Shown: piece by piece, positions 10,039 to 51,799 of the stretch | How positions within the stretch are numbered: position 1 is the first letter of the stretch | Layout: each line of letters starts with the position of its first letter | Notes under the pieces: generated by a model | The model's input: the letters and a program-made list of their open reading frames with translations, nothing else | What the model was told of the DNA's origin: nothing | The model's database searches: none | From: Escherichia coli O157:H7 | GTDB lineage: Bacteria; Pseudomonadota; Gammaproteobacteria; Enterobacterales; Enterobacteriaceae | Length of the DNA stretch: 64,000 bases | Assembly: GCF_013167455.1 (NCBI RefSeq) | Contig: NZ_CP038328.1 | Reading direction: 5' to 3' (one strand) | Translations under genes and position numbers: made by a program

Positions 10039-10104
10039 TTAGGCTTAGCCTAATGCAATTGTCAATAGGCTATGCCTAACGCTTCGAGAGTAGGTATTGC
10101 CTAA
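10039..10104. promoter_or_regulatory. Right operator region: three TTAGGC-N3-GCCTAA-type dyads between divergent cro-like and repressor genes
   Basis: TTAGGCttaGCCTAA (10039-10053), ATAGGCtatGCCTAA (10065-10079), TAGGTattGCCTAA (10090-10104). Confidence 0.6.
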
Positions 10105-10132: not shown

Positions 10133-10609
10133 ATGCTTAGTGGTAAAGACTTAGGCCGAGCGATAGAGCAGGCCATTAACAAAAAAATTGCATCAGGAGC
10201 CGTCAAATCAAAGGCGGAAATCGCACGTCATTTCAAAGTCCAACCACCATCAATCCATGACTGGATTAAGAAAGGTTCGATAAGTAAAGACAAACTTCCA
10301 GAACTATGGCGTTTCTTTTCTGATGTGGTTGGTCCAGAGCATTGGGGGCTTAACGAATACCCCATACCAACCCCATCCACTTCAGATACAAAAAGTGAAC
10401 TTTTAGACATAAACAGCCTTTATCAAGCCGCCTCTGATGAAAAAAGAGCAATTGTGGCTTTCCTCTTATCTGGAAATGCTACGGAGCCTAGTTGGGTTGA
10501 TCATGACGTTCGTGCCTACATTGCCGCAATGGAAATGAAGGTAGCTAACTATCTGAAAAATCAAGAATCAAAACGGAAAAGCCAGAACATCACCAAGACA
10601 GGAACTTAA
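10133..10609 (+). CDS. Prophage repressor, RacR-like (N-terminal XRE-type HTH, no S24 peptidase domain)
   Basis: 158 aa; HTH segment SKAEIARHFKVQPPSIHDWIKKG; same length and divergent arrangement as Rac RacR with ydaS/ydaT. Confidence 0.65.
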   Translation: MLSGKDLGRAIEQAINKKIASGAVKSKAEIARHFKVQPPSIHDWIKKGSISKDKLPELWRFFSDVVGPEHWGLNEYPIPTPSTSDTKSELLDINSLYQAASDEKRAIVAFLLSGNATEPSWVDHDVRAYIAAMEMKVANYLKNQESKRKSQNITKTGT

Positions 10610-10682: not shown

Positions 10683-10745
10683 TATTAGGTCGCACCCAAA
10701 TCATTAGGCGTAGCCTATTGACAAGCAATTAGGCATTTCCTATAG
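10683..10745 (+). promoter_or_regulatory. Left operator / pL-like promoter (TTGACA, 17 nt, TATAGT) overlapped by operator half-sites
   Basis: TTGACA at 10716-10721 and TATAGT at 10739-10744 with 17-nt spacer; dyads TTAGGCgtaGCCTAT (10702-10716) and TTAGGCattTCCTAT (10727-10741). Confidence 0.6.
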
Positions 10746-10846
10746 TTTTCCCATACCAACCCATCCCGTCCCACACAATACAGGGCAATACCTAGAGTTA
10801 CCCGGCAGTGGTCAGGGATTAAGTAGCCAGCCCGAGGCGTAAGAAC

Positions 10847-11077
10847 ATGACGGCAGGGTTCAACTTTAACTATGCAGCAGGTTTTTGTTCCGCTACCCCG
10901 GCGTTAAGGGGATATGAGGTCAGCATGGATACTCTTGATCTTGGCAACAACGAATCTCTGGTGTGCGGCGTGTTTCCCAACCAGGACGGCACGTTCACCG
11001 CGATGACGTATACCAAAAGCAAAACGTTTAAAACCGAATCTGGCGCGCGTCGCTGGTTAGCAAGAAACTCTGACTAA
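10847..11077 (+). CDS. Small early-left operon protein (YdaF/YdaG-like?; start may be 10925)
   Basis: ORF-track frame; GAGG-type ribosome-binding sites precede both candidate starts; first gene downstream of the pL-like promoter. Confidence 0.45.
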   Translation: MTAGFNFNYAAGFCSATPALRGYEVSMDTLDLGNNESLVCGVFPNQDGTFTAMTYTKSKTFKTESGARRWLARNSD

Positions 11078-11191
11078 TGAAATCTGGTAATTAAGGAATC
11101 CTCCACGGGGGGAGAGTGGTGCACACGCGCCGGACACAAGCAAGCATCCGGCATGCTCTTTAACAATCTGGATATCCATAACAGTAAAAAT

Positions 11192-11683
11192 CTACAGATT
11201 GCCGTTCAGTTTTCTGGCCAACTCTTCAATAGATGGAGGTGATACGTAATCCGGATTTTTATTCATAAGAAACTGATTTTCACAGTACAGGCACCTGCTT
11301 TTATGAAAAAATTCATATTCTCTAACCGGGAATGGCTGAAGTATCGATACTATCTTTTGTCCAAAACATTTTGGACAAAGATGCATGATTATGCTGCCGC
11401 CGTTCACGGTTACCTCCTTCGAGTACACAAAAGTTCCCGACTCAAGTTGGCTAAGGATATAACCTTCCGTCTGAGCCTCAAAGTTTTCAAATTCTGCAAT
11501 TTTAGCTTTGAGAGAAGCATTTATTTCTTGATAAGTGCCCACCAGCTCAACGAGAGACACGCATTCGCGCTGAATAGATGCAAGCTTTGAGTTCAGTTCA
11601 CCAATAGCCGCATTTACTTCAGCTTGAGTTTTTGCCTCGTTCATTAGTTTTGCAATCTGGGCGGTTTCACGAATAGCCGTCAT
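11192..11683 (-). CDS. Unknown 163-aa protein: N-terminal coiled coil, C-terminal CxxC...CxxC zinc-ribbon-like motif; counter-oriented within early-left operon
   Basis: MTAIRETAQIAKLMNEAKTQAEVNAAIGELNSKLASIQRE...HLCPKCFGQKIV...HKSRCLYCENQF...; start at 11683 avoids overlap with the exonuclease gene; flanked by 13-bp inverted repeats. Confidence 0.5.
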   Translation of the reverse strand: MTAIRETAQIAKLMNEAKTQAEVNAAIGELNSKLASIQRECVSLVELVGTYQEINASLKAKIAEFENFEAQTEGYILSQLESGTFVYSKEVTVNGGSIIMHLCPKCFGQKIVSILQPFPVREYEFFHKSRCLYCENQFLMNKNPDYVSPPSIEELARKLNGNL

Positions 11684-11884
11684 TGCTGCCGTTAATTCAG
11701 CGATCACATTCAATACTCTTATTGTTGTTGGGGATATCCAGATTAACAAGATCCTTGTTGTTGGGGAATAACGGGGACCACCTCGCCTGACGTGGTAAAA
11801 AGCAGGCACACAACACGAAAGCACACGGCGAGGGACACCATTAAATGGTGGCTTAAGCAATCACGCGAAGCGCAATCTGCCATT

Positions 11885-12229
11885 ATGACCGATGAAATCC
11901 CGTTAGATGATGCACTGTTACAATTGCGGGAATTTATCGACGAAAACTCCGGTGAATTTTTTGTTCAGGTCTGGGGAAATGGAGCCAACTTCGACAACAC
12001 GATTTTGCGCCGTTCATACGAACGGCAGGGGATCCCCTGCCCGTGGCGTTACTACAACGATCGCGATGTACGCACAATCGTTGAGCTGGGGAAAGCCATA
12101 GACTTCGATGCCAGAACGGCTATTCCATTCGAAGGTGAGCGCCATAATGCACTTGATGACGCCCGTTACCAGGCAAAATACGTTTCAGTTATCTGGCAAA
12201 AACTGATCCCGAGTCAGGCTGATTTTTAA
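11885..12229 (+). CDS. DEDDh (DnaQ-like) 3'-5' exonuclease
   Basis: VWGNGANFDNTILRR...GERHNALDDARYQAKY resembles DEDD-family exonuclease motifs; start taken at MTDEIPLDD. Confidence 0.6.
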   Translation: MTDEIPLDDALLQLREFIDENSGEFFVQVWGNGANFDNTILRRSYERQGIPCPWRYYNDRDVRTIVELGKAIDFDARTAIPFEGERHNALDDARYQAKYVSVIWQKLIPSQADF

Positions 12230-49417: not shown

Positions 49418-49543
49418 GTCAAAGAAAAAGGCAGCCTGTGGTTGCCTTTTGCCAATAATTCGCACACATTGCGGGTTACTGCTTTATTTTCGTTCAGTGC
49501 TGATAACGAACATCAACCTGCAAAACGAAGCGCATAGTTTAAA
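49418..49543 (-). ncRNA. sraB: Possible small RNA in yceF-yceD intergenic region (SraB locus in K-12); bounds approximate
   Basis: Hairpin AGGCA-N9-TGCCT followed by T-rich tract on minus strand at about 49420-49448; assignment by genomic context and memory only. Confidence 0.25.
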
Positions 49544-50167
49544 ATGGCTATCATCAATACGCTATATCTGATGGAAAAAAATATGCCTAAACTTATTTTA
49601 GCCTCCACCTCGCCCTGGCGTCGCGCTCTTCTGGAAAAACTGCAAATCTCTTTTGAATGTGCAGCACCCGAGGTCGACGAAACTCCACACAGCGACGAAT
49701 CACCGCGACAGTTGGTGCTTCGACTGGCACAAGAAAAAGCGCAATCTCTGGCGTCACGTTATCCGGATCATTTAATTATTGGTTCAGACCAGGTATGTGT
49801 TCTTGATGGCGAAATCACCGGTAAACCGTTAACGGAAGAAAATGCCCGTCTGCAATTACGCAAAGCCAGCGGCAATATCGTCACTTTCTATACTGGACTG
49901 GCGTTGTTTAATTCGGCGAATGGGCATCTGCAAACAGAAGTGGAGCCTTTTGACGTCCATTTCCGTCACCTGAGCGAGGCGGAGATTGATAATTACGTGC
50001 GTAAAGAGCATCCCCTGCACTGCGCGGGTAGCTTTAAGAGTGAAGGATTTGGCATTACTCTGTTTGAGCGTTTAGAGGGGCGTGATCCTAACACGCTGGT
50101 TGGTTTACCGCTAATCGCGCTGTGTCAGATGTTACGTCGGGAAGGGAAAAACCCGCTGATGGGATAG
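49544..50167 (+). CDS. yceF: Maf-like nucleotide pyrophosphatase YceF (alternative start 49583)
   Basis: Maf-family protein; downstream start would be [14 protein letters not shown]. Confidence 0.9.
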
Positions 50168-51438: not shown

Positions 51439-51799
51439 GTTTCCGTGTCCATCCTTGTTAAAACAAGAAATTTTACGGAATAACCCATTTTGCCCGACCG
51501 ATCATCCACGCAGCAATGGCGTAAGACGTATTGATCTTTCAGGCAGTTAGCGGGCTGCGGGTTGCAGTCCTTACCGGTAGATGGAAATATTTCTGGAGAG
51601 TAATACCCAGTCTGTTTCTTTGATAATTGCGCTGTTTTTCCGCATGAAAAACGGGCAACCGACACTCTGCGCCTCTTTGAGCTGACGATAACCGTGAGGT
51701 TGGCGACGCGACTAGACACGAGGCCATCGGTTCACACCCGGAAAGGCGTTACTTTGCCCGCAGCTTAGTCGTCAATGTAAGAATAATGAGTAAGTTACG
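51439..51799 (+). promoter_or_regulatory. rne long 5' leader (autoregulatory UTR); bounds approximate
   Basis: About 570 bp non-coding upstream of rne with multiple hairpins; leader length from memory. Confidence 0.4.

Follow-up and report, generated by a model that had tools for sequence, protein, structure and literature searches.

Gene ECs_1504 of prophage Sp6 in Escherichia coli O157:H7, a probable Rip1-like anti-phage defence in the sieB position

What does a small gene set against the early-left operon of an Escherichia coli O157:H7 prophage encode, and do the short repeats on either side of it mark the ends of a mobile cassette? The gene, ECs_1504, lies in a stretch of 64,000 nucleotides that was analysed as a whole and is referred to below as the window. 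An original prediction, made from the sequence alone, had taken it for a single-gene anti-phage or exclusion determinant of no recognisable family, carried on a discrete cassette between perfect inverted repeats. The RefSeq label is 'hypothetical protein' in every record among the matches listed (12 of 737), and a literature search on ECs1504 and the neighbouring Z numbers returned only unrelated papers.

Position in Sp6 and coding sequence

The 2 kb around ECs_1504 are 100% identical to many E. coli O157:H7 chromosomes, that of strain Sakai included. By comparison with the O157:H7 chromosomes, this region of the window corresponds to the Sakai 'prophage Sp6; lambda-like phage', adjoining potC. 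The position of the gene is defined by the following features.

10133-10609, + strand, RacR-like repressor gene, from the gene order in Sp6
10718-10746, + strand, strong pL-like promoter, TTGACA-17-TATAGT (11/12 of the consensus), from a promoter scan
10847-11077, + strand, DUF1391 (ydaF/ydfA-like) gene, the first of the early-left operon, convergent with ECs_1504
11192-11707, - strand, ECs_1504, Rip1-family coding sequence of 171 aa with a GTG start, from the translated reading frame, the RefSeq start and homologues

On the + strand, ECs_1504 is followed by an 'exonuclease' gene, xis, int and potC in this order. The repressor, DUF1391, exonuclease, xis and int genes are all located on the + strand, in agreement with the predicted opposition of ECs_1504 to the early-left operon. 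In the Rac prophage of K-12, racR-ydaG-ydaF is followed first by sieB, on the opposite strand, and then by kilR. Comparison of the two gene orders places ECs_1504 in Sp6 as the exact counterpart of the sieB slot in Rac, and the exclusion-moron position proposed originally is thus the one that Rac fills with sieB. Transcripts from the pL-like promoter (10718-10746) would pass antisense across ECs_1504.

The minus-strand reading frame of the original prediction (11192-11683, 163 aa) and its translation with the CPKC and CLYC motifs were reproduced, but the start codon was probably misplaced. The true start is most likely the GTG at 11705-11707, giving 171 aa, and not the internal ATG at 11683. 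The GTG is the RefSeq start, the eight residues that it adds to the N-terminus (M/V-IAELTAAM) are kept in homologues, and the GTG with AAGAG before it is kept in 5/5 close relatives, so that the 163-aa version is probably shortened at the N-terminus. Comparison of ECs_1504 with its relatives gave dN/dS values of 0.14-0.27, indicating purifying selection. Among 5426 complete E. coli genomes, 645 (about 12%) carry the gene, including the whole of the O157:H7 lineage sampled, and 647 carry its leader (described below).

Inside the coding sequence, the codons of the zinc knuckle CPKCFGQK are covered by a perfect palindrome (11 bp, 2-nt loop, TTTGTCCAAAA TG TTTTGGACAAA; 11356-11379), which is paired in the predicted mRNA fold. 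Next to the gene, the Sp6 'exonuclease' ECs_1503 (11832-12229; junction 11831/11832) retains only the final ~130 codons of an exonuclease gene that has 2472 bp and is complete in other prophages, both those at potC and those elsewhere. Relative to strain SI-NP020, about 3 kb are missing from Sp6, namely the DicF RNA, dicB, a DUF1482 gene and about 690 exonuclease codons. In the Rfam search, DicF was detected in strain G6/7 and was absent from the 64-kb window. With this deletion of about 3 kb in the early-left region, right beside ECs_1504, the Sp6 prophage is therefore partly decayed.

Relationship to Rip1 and other known proteins

In searches of family databases, the ECs_1504 protein gave weak coiled-coil noise at most against Pfam, and no match against NCBIfam or PADLOC (2023). 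In PHROGs, it matched the unnamed family 1244 and no other. An exhaustive profile search yielded 3603 cluster representatives at E<=1e-3, and nearly all of the best 150 of these 3603 were 140-180 aa in length. A profile of 148 relatives was then compared with the sequences in PDB, and matched chain L of 9oox, 'ring interacting pore 1 (Rip1)', over its full length (positions 3-149) with E=3.4e-40. The single sequence of ECs_1504 matched the same Rip1 with E=3.6e-7, and BLASTP between the two proteins gave 27% identity over 150 aa (E=5e-13). The title of 9oox describes the cryo-EM structure of Escherichia phage HK446 Rip1 and Enterobacteria phage T6 small terminase; the entry contains 12 copies of the Rip1 chain, and its Rip1 sequence is 100% identical to gp37 of HK446 over the 149 residues rebuilt from the alignments.

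The fold points to the same protein. An AlphaFold2 model, built on the 148-sequence family alignment (pLDDT 94), begins with two long helices (residues 2-24 and 28-79), after which a domain of six strands bears both CxxC pairs. When this model was compared with PDB by Foldseek, the only significant matches were 9oox_L/M (probability 1.00, TM 0.78, rmsd 3.1 A over 120 columns), and nothing else was found below E=0.1, the next match being at E=0.1. Four cysteines (C111, C114, C139 and C142) are invariant in the 148 sequences, and Y83, G91, Y95 and L123 are each at least 90% conserved; the four cysteines and the Y/G/VY/ILQ motifs align with those of Rip1. Within the same 148 sequences, the N-terminal helices are conserved to the same degree as the sensor domain. 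Alleles differ strongly in the segment between the CxxC pairs and in the C-terminal tail.

Based on these matches, ECs_1504 can be assigned to the Rip1 family with high confidence. It is a divergent new member, with 27% identity to the prototype, of a known single-gene defence family. The profile and fold searches proposed with the original prediction have thereby been carried out, and have supplied the family that it could not name, the Rip1 family now having a solved structure (9oox, released 2026-02-04). Homology to a known structural or recombination protein, regarded at that time as a refutation, was not encountered; Rip1 was the only match of solved structure. For a family of more than 3600 cluster representatives without a Pfam, NCBIfam or PADLOC-2023 model, the name 'Rip1-like' closes an annotation gap.

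SieB of lambda, P22 and Rac shares the genomic position and orientation of ECs_1504, in Rac being located directly after ydaF on the opposite strand, but it is a membrane protein of PHROG 6399 and shows no similarity to the Sp6 protein. The hydropathy scan detected no classical membrane segment in the ECs_1504 protein (Kyte-Doolittle maximum 1.13, versus 2.19 for Rac SieB), and its N-terminus is amphipathic. Identity with SieB was ruled out on both grounds, the match to PHROG 1244 instead of 6399 and the lack of a membrane segment.

The likeness to HK446 extends from the protein to the gene. Both are single prophage genes counter-oriented in the early-left operon and of similar size (171 aa in Sp6, 164 aa in HK446), and the Sp6 protein has a predicted two-helix N-terminal hairpin followed by a beta-rich CxxC...CxxC domain. 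In HK446, rip1 (gp37) is counter-oriented between N and the ral-like and cIII genes, corresponding to the sieB position. The Sp6 protein differs in its N-terminus, which is charged and less Gly/Ala-rich and less hydrophobic, and in the presence of an additional C-terminal helix (residues 160-167) and tail. The backbone is also different, being Rac-like in Sp6 (DUF1391 to dicB/exonuclease), whereas the slot in HK446 lies between N and cIII. In the accessible part of its description, which includes a meeting report, the prototype is presented as a prophage defence that senses the small terminase, and a 2026 preprint counts Rip1 among the small-terminase-sensing systems (bioRxiv 10.64898/2026.04.30.721860).

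HkaP of phages HK620, HK629 and HK630 also belongs to PHROG 1244, and its gene is counter-oriented between cIII and hkaQ/N, but the identity to the Sp6 protein is 28%. The depositors labelled HkaP as 'putative superinfection exclusion protein'. No literature on HkaP function was found, and in the sole paper found naming hkaP, the flanking intergenic regions of HK620 served as insertion sites (PMC4506075).

More distant homologues were identified in Casadabanvirus (DMS3 gp25, D3112 orf25 and the JBD30 homologue), matching Rip1 with E=1e-19 and showing about 28-31% identity to the Sp6 protein.

L004 3438-3965, + strand, DMS3 gene 25, Rip1 homologue with orthologues in D3112, JBD30 and MP38

This is the sole counter-oriented gene in its stretch of the late region, and occupies the inter-terminase moron slot that is the place of tab in JBD26. 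In the paper on Tab, DMS3 gene 25 was used solely as a Southern probe (PMC10884400). Tab of JBD26 is a single small minus-strand prophage protein, expressed from the lysogen under its own promoter, that blocks a late step through a virion-assembly target, the tape-measure protein and tail assembly, and has the partner anti-Tab (PMC10884400). The Tab/anti-Tab system resembles the Rip1 homologues in the slot, held by Tab in JBD26 and by the Rip1 homologue in DMS3, but Tab is unrelated in sequence and 83 aa in length, and no partner gene is evident in Sp6.

In a Salmonella prophage, a Rip1-family gene is counter-oriented between cro and the replication genes. Taken together, counter-orientation was observed in 7/7 phage or prophage loci examined, and in all the socket loci (see below) with identifiable neighbours. 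In E. coli ETEC1701, a second Rip1-family allele (L017 2113-2568, - strand, 151 aa, 49% identical to the Sp6 protein) is located between ydfC and dicB, a position equivalent to that in Sp6, and the presence of 49%-identical alleles in equivalent positions suggests allelic diversification at one locus. In an unrelated metagenome-assembled genome or prophage (L020 3001-3483, + strand), a family member is reversed inside a cluster of tail genes (tape measure, DUF2460 and Phage_BR0599).

Proposed function and its alternatives

The original reading of a single-gene anti-phage determinant gains support from the homology to Rip1 (27% identity and the fold match). By analogy with the prototype, from which the mechanism is taken, we consider it quite probable that ECs_1504 provides Sp6 with a single-protein anti-phage defence of the Rip1 family, located as a moron in the sieB slot, and likely, to a very similar degree, that it acts as an abortive defence triggered by the small terminase.

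The lysogen would express ECs_1504 from its own leader, independently of the repressed early-left operon and convergent with it. The presumed trigger is the small terminase of an infecting phage, after its assembly into a ring. Rip1-like monomers would dock on this ring via the C-terminal four-cysteine zinc-ribbon/beta domain, and the terminase ring would serve as the template for a Rip1-like ring, on the model of the solved HK446/T6 complex, in which 12 Rip1 are placed on an 11-mer TerS. The N-terminal helices would then form a membrane pore, and the cell would die or be disabled before progeny release. Upon induction of Sp6, antisense transcription from pL could, more speculatively, silence ECs_1504. 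If the Sp6 protein follows the prototype in its phage-resistance phenotype, the Rip1-like assignment predicts, via the small terminase, which phages an O157 lysogen should resist, and such resistance is relevant to phage-based control of EHEC.

With an identity of only 27%, the trigger and the output could differ from those of the prototype. The Rip1 fold could be wired otherwise, sensing another ring (portal, another terminase class, or a replication or clamp ring) or sequestering the small terminase without a pore. In this direction point the low identity to HK446 Rip1 (27%), the strong differences among alleles in the segment between the CxxC pairs and in the C-terminal tail, and the presence of 49%-identical alleles at the same slot in different E. 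coli strains, as would be expected of diversifying specificity. The N-terminus is also less hydrophobic than that of the prototype, and other prophage defences hit the terminase without pores, according to the accessible part of one report (bioRxiv 10.1101/2025.02.27.640495). Against these points, the architecture, the length and all motif positions are conserved with the prototype from end to end, and the N-terminal helices match the sensor domain in conservation, which argues for a shared effector. We regard such different wiring as rather unlikely, and prefer the prototype-like defence.

A role in the cycle of its own prophage, either by tuning, via the prophage's terminase, the timing of packaging or lysis, or as a DksA/TraR-type zinc-finger regulator, is considered very improbable. 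A coiled-coil hairpin with a C4 zinc finger is also the architecture of DksA/TraR, which the Sp6 protein would fit, and the Casadabanvirus homologue lies directly between terminase genes. The protein and its 148 relatives gave, however, no Pfam match to any regulator family, and Rip1 is the sole structural match. In the seven loci and the socket loci with identified neighbours, moreover, the gene runs against the lytic operons without exception and is swapped with unrelated cargo, which is the pattern of an accessory gene and not of a core function. A DksA/TraR-type regulator as such was ruled out, as neither a Pfam match (for the protein and the 148 relatives) nor a PDB fold match was obtained.

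Repeats, leader and exchange of the gene

The repeats and the segments to which they belong are listed below.

11165-11177, left (3') arm of the inverted repeat, AATCTGGATATCC, 15-27 nt beyond the stop codon
11732-11744, right (5', gene-proximal) arm of the inverted repeat, GGATATCCAGATT, 25-37 nt upstream of the GTG
11722-11734, first copy of the direct repeat, TTGTTGTTGGGGA (CCCCAACAACAA on the gene strand), directly before the Shine-Dalgarno-like AAGAG
11755-11767, second copy of the direct repeat, TTGTTGTTGGGGA, from the repeat search
11722-11770, - strand, conserved leader core of about 48 nt, TATTCCCCAACAACAAGGATCTTGTTAATCTGGATATCCCCAACAACAA in gene orientation, at least 90% per column among 60 distinct leaders
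11156-11171, - strand, conserved trailer, CCAGATTGTTAAAGAG in gene orientation, found downstream of the stop codon in each of the three cargo families
11155-11815, - strand, portable module of leader, gene and trailer, from homology to phage PhiR49_1
11183-11722, - strand, variable cargo segment, the homology to strain G6/7 stopping at 11182 and resuming at 11723

The perfect 13-bp inverted repeat was confirmed at 11165-11177 and 11732-11744, and extends to 26 nt at 81%. The 13-bp direct repeat also exists; its copy at 11755-11767 was placed correctly in the original prediction, and the first copy is at 11722-11734, not at 11723-11735. Further copies of the inverted repeat, which would have weakened its meaning, were not found within the 64-kb window. 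A perfect 13-bp inverted repeat with arms 50-700 nt apart is expected by chance 0.55 times per 64-kb window and occurs at least once in 43% of shuffles, so that the inverted repeat has no significance by itself. The 13-bp direct repeat is rarer by chance (8% of shuffles). Both repeats are real by their conservation, as the arms and both direct copies accompany the gene in prophages of unrelated backbone. In a Salmonella relative with 70% protein identity, the inverted repeat is kept in an 11-nt form with unchanged offsets.

In phage PhiR49_1, a 661-bp module with 93.6% identity to the Sp6 module is located beside cI in an unrelated backbone, with the arms and the direct repeats intact, and is followed by a canonical intrinsic terminator. 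In strain G6/7, another counter-oriented gene (2-TM, PHROG 6315) lies between the same flanks, and both arms belong to the shared flanks. The segment between the repeats, for which a check of polymorphism among related prophages had been suggested, is thus variable, its cargo being swapped in G6/7 and the unit being shared with PhiR49_1. Of the features of a moron, an autonomous unit of promoter, gene and terminator, discreteness was observed, the unit being present in some related genomes and replaced in others. Of the discrete cassette predicted originally, the portable unit stands, with a length of 661 bp, but the inverted repeats are not its ends, the boundaries being located inside or outside the arms. 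The PHROG 6315 gene of G6/7 is at L005 3897-4343 (- strand) and encodes 148 aa.

It is hardly credible that the 13-bp arms are terminal repeats of a small MITE- or IS-like mobile cassette by which the gene was transposed into the prophage: the perfect arms do bracket the gene and the unit is found in unrelated backbones, but the PhiR49_1 module (11155-11815) ends 10 nt and 71 nt outside the arms, the boundaries of the cargo swap in G6/7 (11183 and 11722) lie inside them, the flanks (TTTAAC ... AACAAG) show no target-site duplication, no transposase gene is present, the arms persist around unrelated cargo with the 3' arm being degenerate in many loci, and a 13-bp repeat at such spacing is expected by chance at 0.55 per window. 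With the arms at neither the module ends (11155, 11815) nor the cargo ends (11183, 11722), a transposable cassette bounded by terminal inverted repeats was rejected. From the sequence comparison, the inverted and direct repeats do not form transposon ends but are parts of a leader and a trailer, each of them conserved.

The two direct repeats lie within the leader core (11722-11770), as does the 5' inverted-repeat arm, and a promoter and/or a 5'-UTR element is presumably located there as well. The trailer (11156-11171) overlaps the 3' arm and forms the 3' edge of the cargo socket described below. Among distant relatives, the 5' 112 nt are 82-86% conserved, compared with 75-78% for the coding sequence. 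Neither a consensus sigma-70 promoter nor an intrinsic terminator for ECs_1504 was found in the scan of the window, and no consensus promoter was found in three related loci. In leaders of the G6/7 and P0021 types, the 5' arm begins with a perfect TATAAT, and given these variants, transcription may start inside the arm. For a 621-nt transcript, both the minimum-free-energy fold and the centroid fold close the two arms (z=-5.4); such pairing in RNA matters only if transcription begins upstream of the 5' arm. The covariation of the arms was uninformative: a single pair was compensatory, single mismatches were numerous, and in 12 loci the inner 6 nt did not pair. Upstream of the leader core, a small stem-loop (ACCAC-N10-GTGGT, 11777-11796) is kept in all close relatives; with an A-run behind it on the + strand and, on the gene strand, a T-run ahead of it, it does not resemble a terminator in either direction.

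For a survey of the socket, IMG/VR was scanned for the leader and for the trailer, and a total of 93 distinct loci were obtained. Each has, between the 48-nt leader core and the trailer CCAGATTGTTAAAGAG, a cargo from one of three families that are unrelated to each other.

Rip1-like cargo, 41 distinct IMG/VR loci, 3' arm perfect in 28/41
PHROG 6315 (2-TM protein) cargo, 36 distinct IMG/VR loci, 3' arm perfect in 6/36
PHROG 5286 ('ECs1072 family') cargo, 16 distinct IMG/VR loci, 3' arm perfect in 0/16

All three cargo families were found in the cI-yfdP interval, and the Rip1-like and PHROG 6315 families in the DUF1391-dicB interval. The cargo is opposed to its neighbours in every socket locus with identified neighbour genes. 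As judged from these alignments, the repeats belong to a conserved 'socket' for expression and exchange. Proteins of the Rip1 kind became known in 2025-26, and what is less expected here is the socket with three cargo families, for which no description was found in the literature and which leads to two candidate defence genes.

A wider interpretation is tentative, namely that the leader (two CCCCAACAACAA repeats around AATCTGGATATCC) and the trailer (GGATATCCAGATTGTTAAAGAG) are a dedicated socket by which lambdoid and Rac-like prophages express and exchange single-gene defences, with functional arms and with PHROG 6315 and PHROG 5286 as new anti-phage genes. If so, both cargo families would add to the anti-phage genes, and the arms would serve either 5'-3' pairing of the transcript or pairing with the antisense pL transcript, or the pairing of DNA ends in cassette exchange.

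The PHROG 6315 protein (148-172 aa) has two membrane segments and a C-terminal helical region and matched nothing in PADLOC or PDB; its gene is a candidate for a role in exclusion or abortive infection. The PHROG 5286 proteins (144-151 aa, for example those of L145, L150 and L100) are soluble and also gave no PADLOC or PDB match. Their NCBI name, 'ECs1072 family phage-associated protein', is derived from another Sakai gene, ECs1072.

Elsewhere in the window, Rfam matches were obtained at 4097-4271 (- strand), 307-473 (- strand), 49421-49589 (- strand) and 51439-51775 (+ strand). The elements are a sok antitoxin RNA (of a hok/sok locus within the prophage), STnc100, SraB and the rne 5' UTR element, all being expected features with no bearing on ECs_1504. 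A second perfect 13-bp inverted repeat, TTGTCAATAGGCT, is present at 10059-10071 and 10712-10724, on either side of the RacR-like repressor gene. Its right arm (10712-10724) overlaps the -35 element of the pL-like promoter (10718-10746), and the pair looks like matched OR/OL operators.
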